A stretch of DNA of 64,000 nucleotides, from IMG/VR virus record IMGVR_UViG_3300020045_008999, positions 1 through 64,000 of that record; one strand, given 5' to 3'. The notes under the pieces were generated by a model. The model did no database searches and was not told the origin of the DNA. It worked only from the letters and a program-made list of their open reading frames with translations. Below, in pieces: positions 1 to 57,358 of this stretch (the stretch's first letter is position 1; the number at the start of each line of letters is the position of its first letter). The DNA comes from a virus. Its lineage: Duplodnaviria; Heunggongvirae; Uroviricota; Caudoviricetes. A program made the position numbers and the translations under genes.

Positions 1-88
1 GTAAAAGAATAATAGTGAAAGGATAGGTGACAATTGACCAAAAGACCTTGGATGCCTGAGGAATTAAAGATACTTGAAAGCGGAATGA
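1..88. repeat. Left arm of a perfect 88-bp inverted repeat. It equals the reverse complement of 1483-1570 and may extend beyond the window start.
   Basis: Base-by-base comparison: the reverse complement of 1483-1570 equals 1-88 exactly; the match breaks at 89 vs 1482. Confidence 0.85.
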
Positions 89-107
89 TATTTGAATTCA
101 TTATTGT

Positions 108-458
108 ATGGATTGTTTTAAAATGACCCGCCTTATAATCCTCTTATCCCTCGCCGCCCTCGCTTGCGGTACTCCCGTCCTCATTGCGCCCGCCGATAGT
201 ACCAAAATTGATACAAAGCCAATGACGGCAATTACCCCTCATGTGGCGGATGAATTACGTCAAGCCGTTGCTTGTGTCCCTTACATGGTTAACGTCCGCA
301 CAGATGCGGGAACCGAACACGGCGTTATTGACCAACTGGCAGACCAAACGCCTGTGATAATAACGGGCGAAAAGTTAGACCGTTTCGGGTATGTGTGGGA
401 TGCAGTAAGTTATGGCGATAAAAGCGGGTATGTTTACAGTAAGTACATTTGCGAGTGA
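108..458 (+). CDS. Secreted protein with a bacterial SH3 (SH3b)-like domain
   Basis: N-terminal signal peptide (LIILLSLAALACG). The C-terminal segment VNVRTDAGTEHGVIDQLADQTPVIITGEK..GYVWDAVSYGDKSGYVYSKYI fits the SH3_3 pattern. Lies in a segment whose GC is well above the window average. Confidence 0.55.
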   Translation: MDCFKMTRLIILLSLAALACGTPVLIAPADSTKIDTKPMTAITPHVADELRQAVACVPYMVNVRTDAGTEHGVIDQLADQTPVIITGEKLDRFGYVWDAVSYGDKSGYVYSKYICE

Positions 459-512
459 TGCAATCAGGTATAATGGCAATGTCGACTAAAAACTATATAG
501 GAGTAATAAAAA

Positions 513-740
513 ATGAAACTGAATTTCCAGAACTGGTTCGCTGATTCCCCTCTCGCCTCGTTCCTTCGCACCTTTGCCGCCGTTGTGCTATCAAGTGCGG
601 TTGCGGACTTTGTGCGCGTGGGGCAATTTGAATTCACCAACTGGCAAGCCTGGGCAATCGCCGCGCTTGTCTCAGCCCTGCCCGCGTTATTGCGCTGGTT
701 GAATCCTCAGGACGTATTAAGCACGGCGTCGAAGGGATAA
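513..740 (+). CDS. Putative holin (phage r1t-like small membrane protein)
   Basis: 75 aa with two hydrophobic helices. LRTFAAVVLSSAVADFV ... AWAIAALVSALPALLRWL resembles the r1t holin family. GC-elevated. Confidence 0.45.
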   Translation: MKLNFQNWFADSPLASFLRTFAAVVLSSAVADFVRVGQFEFTNWQAWAIAALVSALPALLRWLNPQDVLSTASKG

Positions 741-976
741 GGGTATAATAGCATAAGCCCTGACCGTCCTCAATGTAGCCTGTATCGAATCAAGATATAC
801 AGGAAGTGGCGGCAGGGCTTTACTATTGGGCGGCAATAAAAACCCATAACGAAATGGAAAAATTATGTATGTAATCCCCGCGTGGTTTATATCTGGATTT
901 AGCTTTATTATTTTTATTATTTGCATGTATAACTTCTTTGTCATTAAATCGCGCAAAGCTGGCGGGTATGGAGTTG

Positions 977-1537
977 TTATGTTGTATTTCCCAGCCCTAC
1001 AAAAATATTATCAAACATGCCAAAACTTCTAAACACCTGGCGGGCTTCTGTCATCTCGTCCGATAACCCACCGCCTTTGCCTAACATCCCTATTTTTTCC
1101 AGCTTCTCAATAGCCGCATCCTTTATCTTTGCGGGTATCATTTCTATCAATTCTTTTATAGTTTCAAAGTTGGCTTCCGTATCGTCTTCTATCCATTCCG
1201 CTCCCCACTTGCTTAGACTGTCGTAGTGCAATAAATCCCCGTTTAGGTGTAATGTCTTTATTCCCCAGCTATCCGCCAAGTCGAGCACCCTGTTTATAAA
1301 TTCGGCATTGTGAAACGGGGCTTCTATATCCGACATTACCACCGCGTCACCCTCTGATTTTAAGGGCCTGTCAAACTTCGGCATTGTCGAAACGGGTACG
1401 GGGATTAATTCCTTGTCCCTGTATAACTTTGATTCAACCGATGAAACACTTCTTTGTAATTTCTTTGCTATTTCCTTGCTTGTCATTCCGCTTTCAAGTA
1501 TCTTTAATTCCTCAGGCATCCAAGGTCTTTTGGTCAA
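977..1537 (-). CDS. HTH-domain protein with an N-terminal WxPEExxxL / sigma-70 region-4-like helix-turn-helix and an uncharacterised C-terminal half
   Basis: ORF starts at TTG within the right inverted-repeat arm. KRPWMPEELKILESGMTSKEIAKKLQRSVSSVESKL is HTH-like. The downstream region (DIEAPFHN...GDLLHYD) is weakly metallophosphoesterase-like. Confidence 0.45.
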   Translation of the reverse strand: MTKRPWMPEELKILESGMTSKEIAKKLQRSVSSVESKLYRDKELIPVPVSTMPKFDRPLKSEGDAVVMSDIEAPFHNAEFINRVLDLADSWGIKTLHLNGDLLHYDSLSKWGAEWIEDDTEANFETIKELIEMIPAKIKDAAIEKLEKIGMLGKGGGLSDEMTEARQVFRSFGMFDNIFVGLGNTT

Positions 1538-1570
1538 TTGTCACCTATCCTTTCACTATTATTCTTTTAC
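1483..1570. repeat. Right arm of the 88-bp inverted repeat. It contains the 5' end (TTG/ATG start and first ~18 codons) of the minus-strand gene 977-1537.
   Basis: Reverse complement is identical to 1-88. The left copy also starts a short 30-codon ORF with the same first 18 codons. Confidence 0.85.
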
Positions 1571-1831
1571 AACGATTTCATGCCGCCACGTATAATTTTT
1601 TATAATAGGCGGTTCACCCATTTGGATAATCAGATCAATTTCAAGCTGCGCCCCTGATACCATCGCCTTTAAATCATCGTACTTCTTTTCAAGGGCGGTA
1701 TATCAATCATCATATTCATCCACTTCAAGCTCATACTCTTCATCGGGGTCATCGTCATCGTCATTTAGTGGATTCGGTGGGGGGTCTTCATCAGGGGGTG
1801 GGGCATCAAGCGATTGGTAATAAAAAATCAT
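1559..1831 (-). pseudogene. 91-codon acidic/Pro-rich ORF interrupted by a single in-frame TGA (codon 43, bases 1703-1705)
   Basis: Manual translation: MIFYYQSLDAPPPDEDPPPNPLNDDDDDPDEEYELEVDEYDD*YTALEKKYDDLKAMVSGAQLEIDLIIQMGEPPIIKNYTWRHEIVVKE. Absent from the ORF track because of the stop. Its 3' end runs 12 bp into the right inverted-repeat arm. Confidence 0.3.
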
Positions 1832-1873
1832 AATAAAATATAATTAAACAAAAATCTATAATACTTAAATAAT

Positions 1874-2476
1874 ATGAAATATTTATCTTGGTTACTTCCT
1901 TTGGGAATCGCTGCAATCATAGTAATTGCATTTTATGGTCTAATCGTAGGATTTAATAATTCCGCTGTAATGTTACAAGAAACCGCAAAAGGATCTTGGG
2001 GAAATGTAGAATCATCCTATCAACGTCGTAATGATTTAATTGGAAATTTGGTGAAAACGGTACAAGGTGCTGCTAATTTCGAAAAAGGTACGTTAACCGC
2101 CGTTATTGAGGCAAGAGCAAAAGCCACATCAACTACAATTGATATTTCTAAAGCCACACCCGCTCAAATAGAAGCGTATCGTAACAATCAAAGTGCCGTA
2201 TCATCATCATTGTCTAGATTATTAGTTAGTGTAGAGCGTTATCCGGAATTGAAAGCCAATGAGAATTTTCTTCGATTACAAACTGAGTTAGAGGGAACTG
2301 AAAACAGAATTAAGTTTGCCCGTGACAATTACAATATTGCGGTTAAACCATATAATATACACATTAAAACCTTTCCTAATTCGTTCATCAATGGGTTTTT
2401 TGGATTTGTAGAATTGCCATATTATAAATCAGATAAAGGGGCTGAAAATGCTCCAGTTGTTGACTTTAAATTTTAA
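1874..2476 (+). CDS. lemA: LemA family membrane protein
   Basis: N-terminal TM helix followed by the conserved LemA core (SWGNVESSYQRRNDLIGNLVKTVQGAANFEKGTL...VIEARAKAT). Confidence 0.8.
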   Translation: MKYLSWLLPLGIAAIIVIAFYGLIVGFNNSAVMLQETAKGSWGNVESSYQRRNDLIGNLVKTVQGAANFEKGTLTAVIEARAKATSTTIDISKATPAQIEAYRNNQSAVSSSLSRLLVSVERYPELKANENFLRLQTELEGTENRIKFARDNYNIAVKPYNIHIKTFPNSFINGFFGFVELPYYKSDKGAENAPVVDFKF

Positions 2477-2485
2477 ATTTTAAAA

Positions 2486-3724
2486 ATGAAAAATATCGTA
2501 ACTGAATTTAGATGGCGCGGTCTATTACAAAACCTATCAAATGGGACCGAAGAACAATTAACAAAGGAATCGACAAGCGTGTACATTGGATTTGATCCAA
2601 CATCGGATTCACTTCATGTTGGAAGTTTAGTACCAATCATAATGTTGAAACATTTAGAAAATTTCAATCACAAACCAATTGTTTTAATTGGTGGGGCCAC
2701 TGGAATGATTGGTGACCCAAGTGGGAAATCCGAAGAACGCAACCAACTATCATCAGACGAGCTTGATAAAAATTATGAGGGAATTCGTAAAACCTTACGA
2801 CATTTTTTAACAAACGCAACGTTTGTAAATAATTTCGACTGGATGTCAAAATTCTCGTTTTTAGATTTCATTAGTCAAATTGGAAAAATGATTACTGTTA
2901 ACTACATGATGGGTAAAGAATCGGTGAAAACAAGATTAGATAAAGGCGGAATGTCCTTTACTGAATTCACATACCAATTGCTACAAGGATATGATTTCAT
3001 GCACTTGTATGAAAATTACAATTGCAAGGTGCAGATGGGTGGATCTGATCAATATGGCAACATGACTACTGGATTAGAGCTTATTCGTAAAAAAGGAGGT
3101 CACGGGTTCGCACTAACATGTCCATTATTGGTTAAATCTGATGGGCAAAAATTCGGAAAATCAGAATCGGGAAATATCTGGTTAGACAAATCCAAGACTT
3201 CGGTATATGAATTTTACCAATTTTGGTTAAACCAAAGTGATCAAGATAGTGAACATCTTATTAAAACACTCACTTTCATGGATCAAGAATCAATACTTGC
3301 TCTTATTGCCGAGCATAAAATTGATGAATCAAAAAGGTTGCTTCAAAAACGATTGGCTTCGGAATTAACTATATTTGTGCATAGTGAAGAAGACCTACAA
3401 GATGTTGTCAACGTTTCAAATGTTATTTTCAATCGTGGTATTTTCGATGATAATACCAATATGCAGATGCTTACAGAAGTAGTTAACGATGCCAAAGAAG
3501 TTGAATTATCATCCGGGGTTACCGTATTGGATTTTTTAACTATGTCAGATTTTCTAACGTCTAATAATGAACGACGTCGGGCATTAAATGAGGGATCGGT
3601 GTTGATTAATAAGATCAAGGTTAATATAGACACGATGATCACAAAATCACACTTCATTAAAAATCACTTACTGATTCAACGCGGTAAAAAAATGTCAAAA
3701 GTGATAGTTCTCACTAATGCGTAA
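2486..3724 (+). CDS. tyrS: Tyrosyl-tRNA synthetase (class I aaRS)
   Basis: YIGFDPTSDSLHVGSLVPI (HIGH-type motif region), KFGKSESGNIWLD (KMSKS motif, as in bacterial TyrRS), and a C-terminal S4-like domain. 412 aa. Confidence 0.9.
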   Translation: MKNIVTEFRWRGLLQNLSNGTEEQLTKESTSVYIGFDPTSDSLHVGSLVPIIMLKHLENFNHKPIVLIGGATGMIGDPSGKSEERNQLSSDELDKNYEGIRKTLRHFLTNATFVNNFDWMSKFSFLDFISQIGKMITVNYMMGKESVKTRLDKGGMSFTEFTYQLLQGYDFMHLYENYNCKVQMGGSDQYGNMTTGLELIRKKGGHGFALTCPLLVKSDGQKFGKSESGNIWLDKSKTSVYEFYQFWLNQSDQDSEHLIKTLTFMDQESILALIAEHKIDESKRLLQKRLASELTIFVHSEEDLQDVVNVSNVIFNRGIFDDNTNMQMLTEVVNDAKEVELSSGVTVLDFLTMSDFLTSNNERRRALNEGSVLINKIKVNIDTMITKSHFIKNHLLIQRGKKMSKVIVLTNA

Positions 3725-3774
3725 CATTTTCGTATAAATCTATAATAAGTATTAACAACCATATACATTTAAGT

Positions 3775-4044
3775 ATGCCAGAAATCGATGCATATGCTGC
3801 ACATAATTCGTTAATTATTCCGGATATATATCCTACTGATTTAGAGGAATGTTTGGTACTATTCGAAAGGATAAAATACGATAGTTTTGGATTTCCGTTG
3901 GTATTCCTAGACTATGACTATACGTTTAAAAGCTGGTGTGTTTGTTTTAGAAACCCTGCTAATTTTACTAATCCGGATATTAAAGAAAAGACACCCCTTG
4001 ATGCATGTCATCGAATGTTTGATTTTTTAAAATGTAAAAAGTAA
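3775..4044 (+). CDS. Hypothetical protein
   Basis: 89-aa ORF in co-directional gene array. Confidence 0.35.
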   Translation: MPEIDAYAAHNSLIIPDIYPTDLEECLVLFERIKYDSFGFPLVFLDYDYTFKSWCVCFRNPANFTNPDIKEKTPLDACHRMFDFLKCKK

Positions 4045-9857: not shown

Positions 9858-10241
9858 ATGACAAAAATAGCAGACAACAATGAATATTTTGGGAAGAGGG
9901 TACACATTTGGACAGCACTACATAAGAATAGTTATGTAATCACCGGATTACTACCACTCAATGTAGATTATATCGCGGATAATAGTGTGGGAAGAGTAGT
10001 TCAGGTGCGTCTAAAGGCGGGGGCATATGGTAGCAATTGTGTTATACTGCGCCATGTAAATGGTAGTTTAATTCCCCATGAAAATCAAAGTTTTTTCGAA
10101 ATTCCAGAACAATTTCACCAGTACCTTGATACCTGTTTTGATGGTGTATATTTAGACGATTCCGATCGATACGAATATTCATTACAAGGCGAGTTCAAGG
10201 AATCAGGGTTTTTAGTATCTGGTACCAACCATACACTATAA
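9858..10241 (+). CDS. Hypothetical protein
   Basis: 127-aa ORF. Confidence 0.4.
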   Translation: MTKIADNNEYFGKRVHIWTALHKNSYVITGLLPLNVDYIADNSVGRVVQVRLKAGAYGSNCVILRHVNGSLIPHENQSFFEIPEQFHQYLDTCFDGVYLDDSDRYEYSLQGEFKESGFLVSGTNHTL

Positions 10242-10281
10242 ATAATAAAGTTATGTATAAATATTTGACACCATATAATAA

Positions 10282-10755
10282 ATGACTTTAGATGATATTT
10301 ATAAATTCATGGAAAAGGAATGTGATAATTTCAAATACCGGATCGATTACGATATAAGACAAGGATATGTTGTGAATTCCAGCGAGAATTACACCTGGAC
10401 ATATCCGCTTTATTTGAATCACAAAGACATATCCATGTTTCCATTTAAATTTGGAACAATACACACGTCTTTTATCGCATCTAGCACCTCACTAGCTTCA
10501 TTAATAAATTCACCAGATTACGTCCGGGACCATCTATTATTGGATGGCAATTTATTACAATCACTAAAAGGAATTAGCAAACATGTGGGGGTCAGACTGT
10601 CAATCAAACACAACCCATTATTAATCAATTGTGAAAATTTTACAATTTTGAATAACTTCATTAGAGAAAATCCATTTTGTACAATTTTGATGGATGACGA
10701 TTTTGCAAAAGCGTTTACTAGATTTAACACCATTGCGGATATTATTAGTTTGTAA
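10282..10755 (+). CDS. LRR-like repeat family protein, subfamily B (C-terminal DDDFxKAF(T/N)R motif)
   Basis: C-terminal ILMDDDFAKAFTRFNTIADII matches other B members. N-xL(K/T)SL-G repeat units. Confidence 0.55.
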   Translation: MTLDDIYKFMEKECDNFKYRIDYDIRQGYVVNSSENYTWTYPLYLNHKDISMFPFKFGTIHTSFIASSTSLASLINSPDYVRDHLLLDGNLLQSLKGISKHVGVRLSIKHNPLLINCENFTILNNFIRENPFCTILMDDDFAKAFTRFNTIADIISL

Positions 10756-15289: not shown

Positions 15290-16801
15290 ATGTTATTCAC
15301 TTACATTGTAATTGGGCTTATTGCCCTGGGATTTTTCGCTACCGTAGTAGCCCTTATATCTAGATATAAAAAATGTCCATCGGACAAACTATTAGTAGTT
15401 TACGGTAAAACCGGTAAAAATGCCGATGGAATGACGTCTACCGCCAGAGTACACCATGGTGGTGGAGCATTTATTTGGCCAGTTATTCAAGATTATCAAT
15501 GGCTATCGCTTAAACCAATCGCGATTGATGTTGATTTACGAGGGGCATTATCTAAACAGAACATCCGAATTGATGTTCCTTCTACCTTTACAATTGCAGT
15601 ATCTACTGATCCAAATACCATGATTAATGCTGCCGAACGTCTTCTCGGAATGCAAAGTACTGAAATTGCCACCCTGAGTAAAGATATCATTTTGGGCCAA
15701 TTAAGATTGGTTATTGCTACCATGGATATTGAAGAAATTAATGCAGACCGTGATAAGTTCCTTACCGCTATTCAAAATAATTTAGAATCGGAATTGGATA
15801 AAGTTGGATTGCGTTTGATCAATGTTAATATTACCGATATCCAAGATGAATCCGGTTATATTAAAGCATTAGGCCAAGAGGCTGCTTCTAAGGCAATAAA
15901 TGATGCAAAAGTATCAGTTGCCGAGAAAACAAGAGATGGTGCCGTAGGATCTACCGCAGCAAGTAAAGATGAAAGAATACAAACATCACAGTTACGTGCA
16001 GATGCAGAAGTAGGTGAAGCACAAGCACTCATGAGTTCTGAAATTGGTAGAGCTGCCACTATAGCAACACAGAGATCGCAACAAGCCGAATTAAATGCAA
16101 CCGCAGTGTCTGGTGAAAATGAGGCTGCTATTAAAATAGCGGATACTACAGCACTCAGAAAGGTGGCAGAAGCTGAGGCTTCTAAGAAATCAACGGTGGC
16201 TGAGAATGTCGCAAAAGCCGAGGCAGAAAAAATAACTTTTGTTTCAGAAACACAAGCCGAACAAGCCCGTGCTGATAAATCTAAAGCTACCTTATATGCC
16301 AATGAAATTGTACCGGCGGAAATTGCCAAGCAAAAGAAAATTGTGGAAGCCGAAGGGGAAGCTGAGAGTATTAGAAGTATTGCCAAAGGTGATGCGGATG
16401 CATTATTAATGGCGAAAACCGCGGAAGCCGAAGGTATTGCAATAATCTTAGAAAAGCAAGCCGAGGGTTTGACTAAATTCATTGAGGCCGCTGGTGGTAA
16501 TCCGGATAAAGCTCTGCAGTTAATGATTGTTGACAAACTTCCGGAATTAATGAAAATACAAATGGATGCAATTGCCAATATCAAAATTGATAAGATCACC
16601 GTGTGGGATAATGGTGGCGAGGGTAGTGAGGGATCTACTGCGGGATTCCTAAAATCAATGTTAGGTGCATTGCCAGCATATGATGAACTATACAAATCGA
16701 TCGGTAAGTCATTACCGGGTATTGTAAACATTGATGATGTTTCAGCAGCTGGTAGAAATGATTCGACACCAAGTGAAATTGCATTCGAAGAAGTGAAATA
16801 A
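15290..16801 (+). CDS. Flotillin-like SPFH/band-7 protein (FloT/YuaG type)
   Basis: N-terminal TM, an SPFH core, and a long Ala/Glu-rich EA-repeat coiled-coil region. Operon-like with NfeD. Confidence 0.8.
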   Translation: MLFTYIVIGLIALGFFATVVALISRYKKCPSDKLLVVYGKTGKNADGMTSTARVHHGGGAFIWPVIQDYQWLSLKPIAIDVDLRGALSKQNIRIDVPSTFTIAVSTDPNTMINAAERLLGMQSTEIATLSKDIILGQLRLVIATMDIEEINADRDKFLTAIQNNLESELDKVGLRLINVNITDIQDESGYIKALGQEAASKAINDAKVSVAEKTRDGAVGSTAASKDERIQTSQLRADAEVGEAQALMSSEIGRAATIATQRSQQAELNATAVSGENEAAIKIADTTALRKVAEAEASKKSTVAENVAKAEAEKITFVSETQAEQARADKSKATLYANEIVPAEIAKQKKIVEAEGEAESIRSIAKGDADALLMAKTAEAEGIAIILEKQAEGLTKFIEAAGGNPDKALQLMIVDKLPELMKIQMDAIANIKIDKITVWDNGGEGSEGSTAGFLKSMLGALPAYDELYKSIGKSLPGIVNIDDVSAAGRNDSTPSEIAFEEVK

Positions 16802-20921: not shown

Positions 20922-20977
20922 TAATTGTATCAATTAGTAATAGCCACTACACTAAAAACCAATTATACAATTACTTG

Positions 20978-21059
20978 TGGGGAGGGCTGGATTCGAACCA
21001 ACGAAGGCAATGCCGCCAGATTTACAGTCTGGTCCTTTTGACCGCTTGGGTATCTCCCC
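20978..21059 (-). tRNA. tRNA-Tyr (anticodon GTA), long variable arm
   Basis: Reverse complement GGGGAGATACCCAAGCGGTCAAAAGGACCAGACTGTAAATCTGGCGGCATTGCCTTCGTTGGTTCGAATCCAGCCCTCCCCA folds as a cloverleaf closely parallel to bacterial tRNA-Tyr. Confidence 0.8.
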
Positions 21060-21151
21060 TACCGGATATTTATAAAATAGAAGATGCAAATAATACAAAT
21101 TATACATTTTTAAATATTCTTAATTAACCGTTTAAGGTCAATTTAATTTGT

Positions 21152-21223
21152 GGTCCCGGAGAATTTTGAAATCCCGGCCTGAAAATTATGAGTTTCCTGC
21201 TCTACCTCTGAGCTACGAGACCA
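21152..21223 (-). tRNA. tRNA-Met/Ile2 (anticodon CAT), non-canonical T-arm
   Basis: Reverse complement GGTCTCGTAGCTCAGAGGTAGAGCAGGAAACTCATAATTTTCAGGCCGGGATTTCAAAATTCTCCGGGACCA. Acceptor, D and anticodon arms are good; the T-stem has a T53-T61 mismatch. Confidence 0.55.
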
Positions 21224-28979: not shown

Positions 28980-29816
28980 TTAAACAGTTTCTGAGATAAT
29001 AGATGGGGTGGAACTTATTTGTTGTAAACATAGAACGTATAGGTGTTCAGATCCAAGTGCAGCAAGCCAATTATCAAAATAGTGTTCCAAAGTATTCGAT
29101 TTTGGATGAATTCCTTTGTGGTATAGCATGAAATCTTTTTTATTTTGTACTTTATCCGCAATGAGCATGTTGTTGACATCTTCAAGTGGTGATAGTCTAA
29201 TTTCTGATAAATTATGAATTTCTCTAGATGATAAATATTCATTGGCTACTGATCGGTATTCAACTGCTGTTATGATCACATTCGAATCAATTCCCTGGAA
29301 TTTATCAATATTCATAGTTAAGTCTGTATCAGATTGTAACATTGGGTGTAGACAATACGCTTTTTTAGCGGTCTCAGACGCATTAATATAGTTTAATATA
29401 TATAATCCTTCATCAATATGATTCATGAAAGCCACGCCGCTTCTGGATGCCTTGTCCCCTTGATAAAAATCACTGATCATGTCATATTCTATAAATGGCG
29501 AATTGTCCACAGAAATATAGTCAATGTTATGTTTGGTTAAATACTCTACAATACCACAATCCGGTGTAGTTAGAACGGTATGCTTTATTGTGTTGCGGTA
29601 AATACCTTTGTTGCGGAATTGGTCTAATATGTAAGTTGATTGGTACGTCTTACCGCCCTTTGTAAAAAAGGCAATTACACCATATTGAAATTCTAAAATT
29701 TCTAAAATTCTAAAATTATGTCTAAGTAATTGCTTTGCACGACTGTTTATATATTCGATCGCTTGTGCATTGGTGGTTGCGTTTAATTCGAACCTTTTCA
29801 TTTTTTCCATATTCAT
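28980..29816 (-). CDS. Hypothetical protein
   Basis: 278-aa ORF containing a 9-bp coding microsatellite. Confidence 0.45.
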   Translation of the reverse strand: MNMEKMKRFELNATTNAQAIEYINSRAKQLLRHNFRILEILEFQYGVIAFFTKGGKTYQSTYILDQFRNKGIYRNTIKHTVLTTPDCGIVEYLTKHNIDYISVDNSPFIEYDMISDFYQGDKASRSGVAFMNHIDEGLYILNYINASETAKKAYCLHPMLQSDTDLTMNIDKFQGIDSNVIITAVEYRSVANEYLSSREIHNLSEIRLSPLEDVNNMLIADKVQNKKDFMLYHKGIHPKSNTLEHYFDNWLAALGSEHLYVLCLQQISSTPSIISETV

Positions 29817-30307
29817 TATTTGTTTAGTATATTATCTATTTCTACCGATCTATTAAAAGCTTTCAAAAAATTATCATCAATGTGAAAAAAATCACAATTT
29901 GAATTAATTAGTGCGTTGATATTTTGAGAATTTATATCAATAAAATTGTTTTGAAAATCTGCGACACCACCAATATACATGGGCATGTCAACTATATTAG
30001 TAATATAATTAGCATCACATGTGAAGTCACCACTTACATAAATTGGTGCACCTACAAGTGAGGTTAAATGATTAAGAAAACAGTCAAAATATCCATCCAC
30101 TATTTTTGGCCCATTTTTTAAACTTGTCAATCCTTGTCCAATGCAAGTAAAATTCCCCTTAATATGATTGAATTTAATTGGAATATGTATGGTTTTCAAA
30201 TTAATAACAACATCCCCATCTACATCAATAGAATTATCTGGGTTAATTGTATAGTGATTGATTCCATATGCTCTACACAATACTTCTATTTTTTTGACAC
30301 TACTCAT
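29816..30307 (-). CDS. LRR-like repeat family protein, subfamily B
   Basis: N-terminal KKIEVLCRAYGINHYTINPDNSIDVDGDVVINLKTIHIPIKFNHIKGNFTC and C-terminal FHIDDNFLKAFNRSVEIDNIL. Confidence 0.55.
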   Translation of the reverse strand: MSSVKKIEVLCRAYGINHYTINPDNSIDVDGDVVINLKTIHIPIKFNHIKGNFTCIGQGLTSLKNGPKIVDGYFDCFLNHLTSLVGAPIYVSGDFTCDANYITNIVDMPMYIGGVADFQNNFIDINSQNINALINSNCDFFHIDDNFLKAFNRSVEIDNILNK

Positions 30308-33718: not shown

Positions 33719-34417
33719 TTATAACAAACCGTCTTTGATTTCTGTTATTAGATCTTTGAAATTTAATTCATTTAGCGAGTAATCAGCATTCCAAATTTCA
33801 AAGTGTCGTTGGTATTTTAAAATCACCGAATGGGTGTTCCCTTTATTTTCACCGAGATGATCATATTTGATTGCTTTTATTATTTTTGTAGGAAGTGGGT
33901 TGTTTGATATGTAAAAATCCCCACCTAAATCAATGTCAGTATCACCACAGAATAAGGAACTTAATTTATTATTTTGTAAATTAAAATCACCACCAATAGT
34001 ATGTGGTGCGCCTATTAAATTTTTCAGTCTATTCAACGATGTATTGAAGTATTTACCAACATGTTTTGGTCCACCAATGAGTGATACTAAATCACAGTTG
34101 TGTGAATCATAGTCACCATCGACATGTTTTGGTCCACCCTCTAATGATAATAATTTTTTTAATCCGAAGCATTTAAAGTCACCGGATACGTATTGTGGGG
34201 CCCCAGTGAGAGTAGTAAGACCACTCATTTGTGCCAAGAAATCACCGTTCACTTTATTGAATCTCAATGGTAATTCAGTCATATTTATTTGTCGAATTAA
34301 AAATACATTGCCATTAACATCAATCGATCCATCTAAATTTATTGTATAATTTTCAATTCCAAAATCATTACATATTCCATTGATAGTATCTAATTCTTTT
34401 ACGGTAAGTAATTTCAT
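33719..34417 (-). CDS. LRR-like repeat family protein, subfamily A (C-terminal ILKYQRHFEIWN motif)
   Basis: N-terminal TVKELDTINGICNDFGIENYTINLDGSIDVNGNV. Seven GxP-HVGG-F repeat units. C-terminal ILKYQRHFEIWNADYSLNELNFKDLITEIKDGLL. Confidence 0.6.
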   Translation of the reverse strand: MKLLTVKELDTINGICNDFGIENYTINLDGSIDVNGNVFLIRQINMTELPLRFNKVNGDFLAQMSGLTTLTGAPQYVSGDFKCFGLKKLLSLEGGPKHVDGDYDSHNCDLVSLIGGPKHVGKYFNTSLNRLKNLIGAPHTIGGDFNLQNNKLSSLFCGDTDIDLGGDFYISNNPLPTKIIKAIKYDHLGENKGNTHSVILKYQRHFEIWNADYSLNELNFKDLITEIKDGLL

Positions 34418-44518: not shown

Positions 44519-44905
44519 TTGATTTATAAATTTAATACGATGACAATACCTGAAATACACATTATTTGTAAGCGATATGAAATCGATCACTATATCATAT
44601 TAGAAAACCGTTCACTAGATGTATTTGGTAATGTTAATTTATCAAATTCAAATCTTATTGAAATACCAATCCTATTTAATTGTGTTAGCGGGAATTTTAC
44701 TTGTTGTCATAATAAAATTGAGTTACTGGTCGGTTTACCAAAACATGTTGGTGGTGATTTGTGTTTTGAGTCAAATTCACTGATATTTGTACCTGATAAT
44801 TTTAAATTATTATCAAAGTGTGATGTTACCGGCGAGTTCTATCTTGACATTCCATTTAAAAATGCACTTAAACGGTATAATGAAATTATGAGTATAATAG
44901 GTTAG
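44519..44905 (+). CDS. LRR-like repeat family protein, subfamily B (short)
   Basis: N-terminal MTIPEIHIICKRYEIDHYII...LDVFGNVNLSNSNLIEIPILFNCVSGNFTC and C-terminal FKNALKRYNEIMSII. Confidence 0.5.
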   Translation: MIYKFNTMTIPEIHIICKRYEIDHYIILENRSLDVFGNVNLSNSNLIEIPILFNCVSGNFTCCHNKIELLVGLPKHVGGDLCFESNSLIFVPDNFKLLSKCDVTGEFYLDIPFKNALKRYNEIMSIIG

Positions 44906-44927: not shown

Positions 44928-45548
44928 CTATTCCAGTCCTTCCTCAATTTCTAATATTAAATCCTTGAAGTTTTCTAAATTTAAGCTCAAATCATCATTC
45001 CAAATTTGAAAATAACGCTGGTACTTAAGGATTAACTTAAACTTATGGTTATCAGTCTCAATGACACCTTTTATTATTTCTGGAAGACCTGATCGCAAAA
45101 TACCCACTACATTACCCACCAACTCGATATCAATTTCACCGGAATATGTTGATGTTAGACTAGCATTACCAAAAATGTAAAAATTTCCACCGATATATTC
45201 GGGTGCCCCAATGAGGTTTGTGATTTGGTTTGAGTCTATCGACAATGATCCACCTACATGTTTTGGTCCCCCTATTAAAGAAGTAATTTTATTAGTATAA
45301 CAATAAAAATCACCATTTACCATTTTAGGGGATCCTGAAATATTCGTTAGATTATTATTAGTGCAAAAAAAACCACCATATACATCATTAAACTTTAATG
45401 GAATTGATGTCAGATTTTGTCTCTCCAAATGTACATTACCATCAACATCAATACTACCATCTGAGTTAATTGAATAGTTTCTAATATCATATTTAGAGCA
45501 TATTGCATCGATTTTATCTTTTTTTGATTTATTTATTAGATTCTTCAT
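44928..45548 (-). CDS. LRR-like repeat family protein, subfamily A
   Basis: C-terminal KLILKYQRYFQIWNDDLSLNLENFKDLILEIEEGLE. Tail-to-tail with 44519-44905. Confidence 0.6.
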   Translation of the reverse strand: MKNLINKSKKDKIDAICSKYDIRNYSINSDGSIDVDGNVHLERQNLTSIPLKFNDVYGGFFCTNNNLTNISGSPKMVNGDFYCYTNKITSLIGGPKHVGGSLSIDSNQITNLIGAPEYIGGNFYIFGNASLTSTYSGEIDIELVGNVVGILRSGLPEIIKGVIETDNHKFKLILKYQRYFQIWNDDLSLNLENFKDLILEIEEGLE

Positions 45549-47530: not shown

Positions 47531-48139
47531 TTATTCTAGACCATCTTTTATATCATTCATTAAATTTTCTAAATTGTTTTGATTTAATGATAAGTCATCA
47601 TTCCATATATCGTAAAATCGTTGGTATTTTAAAAATACCTTGAAATTATCGGAGTGCATTCCATCCAATATATTTAATAGTTGTGTATTACCTATCTCTA
47701 AGTGTGTCCCTAGTGATATATCGGTGTTCCCGGAATACGTTGTGCGTAAATTTGGATTATTGAAACAATCTAGGTATCCACCAATAGTCTCGGCACATCC
47801 TTCGAGTGATATTAATTCATTCTGCTCACAGGTGTAATGGCTACCGACCGTATCTGGTCCACCCACTAACGAAGTTAGGTAATTATAACCACAATCAAAT
47901 ATTTTACCAACGTGTCTTGGGCATCCTTTTAGCGTTGTTAACTTGTTTTTATCACACTCAAAATTCTCACTAACTGTATTAAATTCCAATGGTAATTCTT
48001 GAATATCAAACATTCGAATTGACACCGATCCAGATACATCCAGCGTACTATCATTGTTGATTTTATAATTGTTGATTTTAAATTGCTGACAAATAGCATC
48101 TATTCTATTTTTTTCTTGCTGGTAAATTAAATTTTTCAT
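47531..48139 (-). CDS. LRR-like repeat family protein, subfamily A
   Basis: N-terminal EKNRIDAICQQFKINNYKINNDSTLDVSGSV and C-terminal FLKYQRFYDIWNDDLSLNQNNLENLMNDIKDGLE. Confidence 0.6.
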   Translation of the reverse strand: MKNLIYQQEKNRIDAICQQFKINNYKINNDSTLDVSGSVSIRMFDIQELPLEFNTVSENFECDKNKLTTLKGCPRHVGKIFDCGYNYLTSLVGGPDTVGSHYTCEQNELISLEGCAETIGGYLDCFNNPNLRTTYSGNTDISLGTHLEIGNTQLLNILDGMHSDNFKVFLKYQRFYDIWNDDLSLNQNNLENLMNDIKDGLE

Positions 48140-55721: not shown

Positions 55722-56336
55722 TTATTTTAACCCATCATTAATTTCATCAAGTAATACGTGGTAATTTGTGAGATTTAAAGTAAAATCCTCATTCCATATT
55801 TCGAAGTATCGCTGGTACTTTAATATTAATTTAATTTGTGCATCGTTATCTTCGGTGGTAATTTCACAGGGTAATGAAATACCATCCGTTGTGATCTCAC
55901 CACCAATACATATATCATCAAGTGCGTATAATGAGGTTAGGTGGAAATTTCCATATAATGAAAAATTACCACCGATTGTATGCGCACAACCAATAAGATT
56001 TTTTATATCGGTATATTGAAATATGTAATTGCCATTAACTGTGTGTGGACCACCTTCCATGGAATCGATTGTGTTGTTGTTACATAAAAAATCTCGACCT
56101 ACTATTTTAGGAAATCCTTGCATTGTTGTTAACCCACCGTCGGAACAGGCAAAATTCATAGAAACTGAATTGAAAACAATCGGAAGTACTGTCACATTTG
56201 GTGACATAAAATCCAATGAAACACTCCCGTTTACATCAATAGATCCATCTGCATTTATTGAATAATCAATGATATTATTGTGTTTACAAAATTGAATGAT
56301 TGTATCTTGATTATCCAGTGATATTAAATTTTTCAT
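55722..56336 (-). CDS. LRR-like repeat family protein, subfamily A
   Basis: C-terminal KLILKYQRYFEIWNEDFTLNLTNYHVLLDEINDGLK. Confidence 0.6.
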   Translation of the reverse strand: MKNLISLDNQDTIIQFCKHNNIIDYSINADGSIDVNGSVSLDFMSPNVTVLPIVFNSVSMNFACSDGGLTTMQGFPKIVGRDFLCNNNTIDSMEGGPHTVNGNYIFQYTDIKNLIGCAHTIGGNFSLYGNFHLTSLYALDDICIGGEITTDGISLPCEITTEDNDAQIKLILKYQRYFEIWNEDFTLNLTNYHVLLDEINDGLK

Positions 56337-56683: not shown

Positions 56684-57358
56684 TTATTTTAGACCATCTT
56701 TAATTTCATTTAATAATATTTGGTAATTCTCTTCGTTTAAAGTGAGATCATTATTCCAAATTTCAAAGTGTCTTTGGTATTTCAATATTAATAACATTTC
56801 ATACTTATCGGTGTATTGTATTAAAGATTTTGGTAAGTTTGTATCGTTTATATATATTTTATTACCAACTTCGATATCGACATCCCCAGAGTAGGTGGAT
56901 GTCATATTAGGGTTGTGTGAAATGAGAAAATATGTACCAATATATTCTGGTGCACCTTCCAATGATCTTATATTATTCTTAACGCAACTAAAGAACCCAT
57001 TTACCCGTAATGGTGAAAATTCTAAAGAGGTTAACTGATTATTAAAGAAGTCGCAATTTTCCAATATAACTTCCGGTATTCCTTTCATGGATGTTAGCAT
57101 ATTATCTCTACAACTTAAACTAGCACCTAGTGTTTTTGGAAACCCATATGTTGAGGTAAGGTTATTTTCAGCACAATTAAAATCACCAGTCACCTTGTTG
57201 AATTTTAGTGGTAATATTGAAAGATTTTTACGCATTAGGTTAACATCACCGTCTACATCAATGGATCCATCTGGATTAATGGTATAATTTCCAATTCCAT
57301 ATTGATTACATATCAAATCGATTCTATCTTTTCCTTCTTTGCTAATTAAATTTTTCAT
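56684..57358 (-). CDS. LRR-like repeat family protein, subfamily A
   Basis: N-terminal GKDRIDLICNQYGIGNYTINPDGSIDVDGDV and C-terminal LILKYQRHFEIWNNDLTLNEENYQILLNEIKDGLK. Confidence 0.6.
   Translation of the reverse strand: MKNLISKEGKDRIDLICNQYGIGNYTINPDGSIDVDGDVNLMRKNLSILPLKFNKVTGDFNCAENNLTSTYGFPKTLGASLSCRDNMLTSMKGIPEVILENCDFFNNQLTSLEFSPLRVNGFFSCVKNNIRSLEGAPEYIGTYFLISHNPNMTSTYSGDVDIEVGNKIYINDTNLPKSLIQYTDKYEMLLILKYQRHFEIWNNDLTLNEENYQILLNEIKDGLK

Follow-up and report, generated by a model that had tools for sequence, protein, structure and literature searches.

The window, the whole 64,000-nt stretch analyzed here, belongs to a huge phage of ~31% GC, with six tRNAs, a tyrosyl-tRNA synthetase (TyrRS), a LemA protein, and an SPFH protein; the proteins encoded in it are recorded for just one JGI contig, 596,785 bp long. 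It also encodes a DHFR and an N-acetylmuramidase, along with many ORFs without family matches.

At its left edge the window carries a long inverted repeat: bases 1–88 are the reverse complement of bases 1483–1570, at 100% of positions, with a spacer of 1394 nt between the two arms. A perfect match over 88 nt cannot be a chance event. Nowhere else in the 64 kb is a long repeat perfect, the remaining repeats being paralogue remnants of 60–93% identity, and no second repeat pair was found in 1–4000 apart from short matches at chance level. Complementarity is lost sharply at 88/89 and 1482/1483, with no residual pairing inward by direct reading of the sequence, and the spacer is not palindromic. 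On the outer side the repeat reaches base 1, and no boundary can be seen there; 88 bp is a lower bound, the outer limit being imposed by the end of the sequence.

The right arm (1483–1570) is made of ordinary gene sequence that sits where it naturally belongs. Read on the minus strand, it holds the last three codons and stop of one ORF, a ribosome-binding site (RBS), and the first 18 codons of a helix-turn-helix (HTH) gene; in all, it spans 33 nt 5′ of the TTG start (at 1537) and 18.3 codons from there on. The left arm (1–88) is the inverted copy of this stretch, from the first available base to a fold-back junction (J2, at 88/89), and produces only a 30-codon ORF (34–126). To this extent the initial annotation was accurate: it had described an exact 88-bp inverted repeat, possibly longer than visible, with arms made of 33 bp of upstream sequence and about 18 codons of a minus-strand HTH gene, and a left copy limited to a 30-codon ORF.

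The gene that begins in the right arm continues on the minus strand to base 986 (986–1537), where it is cut by a second junction (J1, at 985/986). It is the 5′ 57% (184 codons) of a gene whose full-length homologues are 309–326 aa long and have an N-terminal HTH followed by a metallophosphoesterase domain. The TTG start is supported because these homologues begin MxxxxW, as does the window protein (MTKRPW). In alignments to phrog_221 (length 367), the window fragment covers positions 106–191, while full-length proteins cover approximately 107–340, with E~1e-19. J1 falls after 184 of ~320 codons, directly behind the “GN” of the GNHD motif. Homology with relatives carrying this part of the gene stops at base 986, and past J1 the frame continues for just two codons (TT) before a stop at 977–979. 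Because the H-D of GNHD is missing, along with all that follows, the predicted product cannot be an active phosphoesterase. The HTH reported in the initial annotation is therefore present, but as part of a 5′ fragment of a ~320-aa HTH-metallophosphoesterase rather than a complete gene. Relatives of this protein (30–67% identity) are found on contigs mostly of 40–62% GC; those in IMG/VR are on viral contigs of about 10–43 kb, several of them 32–37 kb, and they are nearly absent from bacterial genomes and GenBank phages. The ORF that precedes it on the same strand (1559–1702) is a 3′ fragment of 47 codons plus stop, with its 5′ part lost at the third junction (J3, 1703–1707); no homologue of it was seen in any fetched locus.

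On the other side of J1, bases 89–985 form a second piece of foreign DNA (46% GC), with its genes on the plus strand. The first of these, starting at 108 or 123 and ending at 458, encodes a protein with an SH3b domain (Pfam SH3_3, 28.8 bits, with a cut-off of 27), whose N-terminus reads as a lipoprotein signal; this is consistent with the signal-peptide SH3b protein of the initial annotation. The second (513–740) encodes a 75-aa holin-like protein with two transmembrane (TM) segments, and is followed by a stem-loop (757–818) and by a small TM ORF that begins at 865 and is cut by J1. The SH3b and holin-like ORFs are both intact. Homologues of the two-TM protein, with 63–81% amino acid identity, are found in small-phage contigs mostly of 45–48% GC; these share only the holin-like gene with the window, and one of them also carries a terminase and a methyltransferase. 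The proposed assignment of this protein as an r1t-like holin is unsupported by Pfam or PHROG, neither of which gave any match even at E≤10, although one homologue has a weak, sub-threshold match to Phage_holin_10.

The first intact native gene is lemA (1874–2476, plus strand; Pfam LemA, 1.5e-50), which served as the anchor for comparing relatives. One of these is a short ENA contig (L039), with a LemA protein at least 90% identical (same 90% cluster) and a mean column identity of 83% over the aligned region; the others found are the distant huge phages L040, L041, and LR745206.1. Searches of IMG/VR and of GenBank phages with TyrRS, a LemA 27-mer, and megablast found no phage closely related to the native one. 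Between J3 and lemA, bases 1707–1820 on the plus strand contain the last 38 codons and stop of an open frame, ending “...SSFSGFGGGSSSGGGASSDW” before the stop, with neither a start codon nor a TPM domain. The encoded tail is 68% identical in amino acids to the sequence upstream of LemA in L039, where the plus frame is open to the edge of the contig; the homology to L039 sets in at base 1707. The same kind of Gly/Ser-rich tail, ending in G(S/D)W, also terminates TPM-domain proteins adjoining LemA in three other huge phages. These similarities mark 1707–1820 as the C-terminal tail of a native TPM-family, LemA-associated gene. LemA/TPM gene pairs are known from bacteria and huge phages, and as in those pairs a Gly/Ser-rich ...G(S/D)W tail lies beside LemA here; the differences are that only the last 38 codons are left, and that the TPM-family gene is upstream of LemA rather than downstream. 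A search for the missing 5′ part, using the L039 upstream peptide, gave no matches. On the opposite strand there is an acidic 42-codon ORF (1703–1831), which was considered as a gene and rejected because the corresponding minus frame of L039 has stops and no start; it is an antisense shadow of the conserved Gly/Ser tail.

The GC-elevated zone at this end of the window runs from base 1 past the right arm to ~1820. The foreign DNA within it extends from base 1 to approximately 1703, with three abrupt junctions, and overshoots the right arm by 133 nt, up to J3. The initial annotation had the repeats bracketing a GC-elevated cassette, which agrees neither with this extent nor with the GC content of the arms, just 36%. 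Its inference of foreign, horizontally acquired DNA is better borne out: the first 1700-nt tile departs from the rest of the window in both GC (z=4.2) and tetranucleotide composition (z=3.95), and GC3 is 0.40–0.65 for the foreign ORFs vs. 0.24–0.32 for native genes. The composition is thus foreign, with no amelioration toward that of the phage.

In a collection of about 15 billion proteins clustered at 90% identity, each of the foreign proteins stands as a singleton. Relatives of both pieces were found only in small-phage contigs, mostly of 40–60% GC. None of the fetched loci contains both pieces together, and none carries the SH3b gene or the ORF upstream of the HTH gene; blastn and tblastn comparisons of the foreign DNA with GenBank phages likewise found no relatives. 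No further copy of the segment was found in the window, in IMG/VR, or in the other collections searched.

The window thus has three junctions within 1.7 kb, each truncating an ORF. They disregard gene boundaries and join compositionally unrelated DNA. At J1 the HTH-metallophosphoesterase gene and the small TM ORF run into one another; at J2 the inverted start of the HTH gene is fused to DNA 19–34 nt upstream of the SH3b gene; and at J3 a 5′-truncated foreign ORF meets the start-less tail of the native TPM-family gene. No microhomology was found at J2, in the single switch direction that could be tested there. Junction-spanning 34–41-mers were absent from IMG/VR, an expected outcome that carries low weight.

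The repeat is real in the sequence. The biology proposed for it is mostly unsupported, and an artefact of the assembly end is its most probable origin. The best reading of the first ~1.7 kb, and one that we consider probable, is that of a contig tip that is chimeric or folded back. Base 1 is very probably a contig end, because a random tile boundary would very rarely land inside an 88-nt arm. No partial genes running off base 1 are on record, and the open tails there are too short to be informative. The first ~1.7 kb would then be a patchwork of two small-phage fragments set on the truncated native TPM-family tail. At base 89 the assembly path would re-enter the 88-mer at 1483–1570 in the opposite orientation, and the contig would end there; in terms of the assembly graph, a path Y-A-loop-A′ would meet a node already used and halt. 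The left arm would be a non-unique k-1 graph node kept at the contig end, not a recombination site. The junctions themselves would come from chimeric molecules or reads, or from mis-joins at low coverage; nearby inverted joins are typical of template switching, and J1–J3 look like template-switch products. On this reading, which is inferred, the joins would be artefacts and not real DNA. Of the geometries suggested in the initial annotation, the one that fits is a fold-back at the boundary of a genome or segment; a chimeric contig end, which it had named as the outcome that would overturn its reading, is now the leading explanation.

Assemblers are known to keep non-unique end sequences of maxK or maxK-1 in length, in forward or reverse-complement orientation (PMC7111523; PMC10914622). 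As in the retained k-mer ends encountered in metagenome curation (COBRA), there is a perfect reverse-complement copy at what is probably a contig end here, and its length is even, which an odd k would give for maxK-1; the difference is that its partner lies 1.4 kb away inside the same contig, rather than at the end of another. In an older standard JGI pipeline, SOAPdenovo was run over a series of k values that included 85, 89, and 93; contigs of <1800 bp were handled separately and went to Newbler as a pool, and minimus2 joined contigs that overlapped by ≥80 bp (PMC5688640). The arm length of 88 is 89-1, corresponding to k=89 of that pipeline, which may not be the assembler used for this sample, and the unit 1–1570 falls below its 1800-bp limit. 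These matches are a lead, not a demonstration.

A second parallel is with the chimeras formed in multiple displacement amplification (MDA), of which 85% are inverted, most of them joining segments <10 kb apart (PMC1855051). The inverted chimeras (Lasken and Stockwell, 2007) resemble the present case in having an abrupt join to the opposite strand at <10 kb, an intervening segment, and no regard for gene boundaries. They come from amplified DNA, however, which this sample may not be, and J3 joins two genomes, placing it in the rarer intermolecular class.

If the tip is artefactual, the huge-phage contig should be trimmed of its first ~1.7 kb, the SH3b, holin-like, and HTH genes there should not be credited to the huge phage, and calls of circularity or completeness that rest on this end need to be rechecked.

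As a second possibility, which we entertain only tentatively, the rearrangement could be a real but non-functional scar. Fragments of co-infecting small phages would have entered the genome of the huge phage, or of part of its population, through illegitimate or template-switch recombination, disrupting the TPM-family gene and creating an inverted duplication of at least 88 bp, at which the contig breaks. The anatomy of J1–J3 fits this equally well, and several features that count against a chimeric tip count in its favor. The foreign pieces (about 720 and 900 bp) exceed the read length, and the assembler would have had to take a chimeric link three times with no competing natural path; many real copies of the rearranged molecule would account for this more easily. 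The intact SH3b and holin-like genes point the same way. As no other long repeat of the window is perfect, an assembly would naturally break here, and the contig of a real circular genome would also break at a perfect repeat. A low-GC huge phage can share its host with phages of ~48% GC, as the precedent of the Lak megaphages indicates, so real recombination is possible. A circularized 596-kb IMG phage genome has been reported (PMC7162821), and might be the source contig, although this is only a lead; if it is, and if its ends overlap, then DNA exists to the left of base 1.

On the other hand, three gene-breaking junctions together with a still-perfect repeat would require a very recent and complex event, fixed in the population. 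None of the relatives examined carries any of J1–J3, and in L039 the place taken by foreign DNA in the window is occupied by an open TPM-family frame. If the scar is real, it would be a modest case of a huge phage acquiring fragments of small co-infecting phages by template switching.

As a third possibility, 89–1482 might be a functional invertible segment, a Gin/Hin/Cin-type or shufflon-like switch as the initial annotation proposed; site-specific or homologous inversion between the arms would exchange the flank that drives the HTH gene. In its favor is the perfect inverted repeat, with an RBS and gene start pointing inward from both sides, and in the Gin/Hin/Cin/Pin segments of Mu, P1, and Salmonella inverted repeats likewise flank ~1–4 kb and overlap the 5′ part of a gene. 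The machinery of those systems is missing, however. A Pfam scan at E≤0.001, covering 83 ORFs over 3.8–64 kb and 8 ORFs of 1–3.7 kb, found no serine or tyrosine recombinase, Resolvase, Phage_integrase or other recombinase family, transposase, or protelomerase, so that the serine invertase or tyrosine recombinase that the proposal would place in the flanks is absent from the ORFs of the right flank, the one within the window. A degenerate hix/gix consensus had 0 matches in the window at ≤3 mismatches, leaving no counterpart of the ~26-bp crossover site. There are no alternative C-termini, such as those of the tail fibres in the known systems, and no recognizable promoter: promoter-like matches are at chance level, and terminator-like sites were not found. 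The gene to be switched is a dead phosphoesterase fragment, whose alternative product would have only 12 extra codons, and the foreign DNA reaches beyond the arm to J3. A shufflon of the Rci type, with a tyrosine recombinase and multiple sfx repeats, fits no better, there being no Phage_integrase match and, in 1–4000, only one pair of repeats beyond chance-level short matches. A functional switch is very unlikely, and is the only one of these cases that would interest specialists.

In a variant of the same idea, the arms would be the closure point of a circular ~597-kb genome, and 89–1482 would invert in vivo, so that expression of a small HTH protein is toggled and a captured lysis-gene cassette changes orientation. 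The driver would be homologous recombination, or a recombinase whose gene lies left of base 1. For a huge phage, this layout of a DNA-inversion switch would be new, and it is very unlikely.

Still less credible is a mobile cassette bounded by terminal inverted repeats (TIRs), a possibility that the initial annotation also raised; here the lysis genes would be cargo of a non-autonomous transposon or MITE-like element. A perfect inverted repeat does flank compositionally foreign genes, but there is no transposase inside or nearby, and no second copy in the window or the searched collections. The arms consist of coding sequence and an RBS, continuous with their natural flank, and the 133 nt of foreign DNA outside the right arm mean that the ends of the repeat and of the foreign DNA do not coincide. 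Least probable of all is a physical genome end that folds back as a hairpin or like a telomere, or a linear genome caught in a head-to-head intermediate of its replication: although the fold-back does sit at the end of the available sequence, the hairpin-telomere genomes of the N15 type have a protelomerase and a palindromic telomere site, neither of which is seen here, where the 1394-nt spacer is non-palindromic, and the terminus would fall among foreign gene fragments and a broken native gene.

Immediately inside the junction between foreign and native phage DNA (at about 1703-1707), the native sequence opens with the remains of a two-gene locus on the plus strand: the last 38 codons of a partner gene (1707-1820), followed by the gene for LemA (1874-2476). 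Several unrelated huge phages pair LemA with TPM-domain proteins or small proteins, the partner carrying a Gly/Ser-rich tail that ends in ...G(S/D)W. The locus is found in an ENA contig of a related phage (L039, 1-837), in two distant huge phages (L040, 9890-11716; L041, 9887-11935) and at L060 (4971-7114); the huge phages with this pairing include a curated genome of 634 kb, LR745206.1.

The same junction is also crossed by an uninterrupted minus-strand frame but for one codon: it extends from an ATG at 1831 to a stop at 1559, and its sole interruption is a TGA at 1703-1705, exactly at the junction. Stop-codon recoding at this TGA was rejected because the upstream part of the frame lies antisense to the conserved plus-strand tail of the LemA partner. 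The continuity of the frame is instead judged to be a coincidence, with one chance in three of occurring.

On the foreign side, a long GC-rich stem-loop (757-818, plus strand; GCCCTG...CAGGGC, with an inner stem CCTGTAT...ATACAGG) is positioned just 3′ of the holin-like gene, with TTTACTATT after it. It is probably a terminator of the foreign piece, and was not called by a simple terminator scan. The window also encodes an N-acetylmuramidase of the phage's own, with a PG_binding_1 domain, so the foreign lysis genes are not needed by the phage.

The family of HTH-metallophosphoesterases to which the truncated gene of the foreign zone belongs is not limited to small phages, since a homologue (40% identity; 10001-10543 of locus L019, from Ga0209510_1000004, 47% GC) lies within another very large contig, of 585,636 bp. 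Among large phage sequences in IMG, Al-Shayeb et al. (2020; PMC7162821) mention a 596-kb circularised genome of Paez-Espino et al. (2016), and caution about assembly artefacts among large “circular” IMG/VR sequences.

Besides LemA, the native gene content includes an SPFH/Band-7 protein (15290-16801, plus strand) and a protein with an NfeD-like domain, an unusual membrane-organisation gene set for a phage. One tRNA cluster holds Tyr and Met genes (20977-21222), and a second holds Lys, His, Phe, and Trp genes (63661-63970). The phage also encodes a tyrosyl-tRNA synthetase (2486-3724), so that a tRNA-Tyr gene and its synthetase are carried together.

About 11 genes of the window, encoding 128-268 aa, are paralogous, with pairwise identities of 31-48%. 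Four are on the plus strand (44519-44905, 59078-59875, 60921-61664, and 61787-62392) and seven on the minus strand (29816-30307, 33719-34417, 44928-45548, 47531-48139, 55722-56336, 56684-57358, and 60133-60939). No Pfam family is common to several members. They share a conserved N-terminus (MKNLI..K.ID.IC..Y.I.NY.IN.DGSIDV), leucine-rich-type repeats of about 22 aa (G.F.C..N.LTSL.G.P..VGG) that vary in number (about 2-7), and in most a conserved C-terminus (LILKYQRHF.IWNDDLSLN...EI.DGL). This family explains all of the diverged repeats in the window, both direct and inverted.
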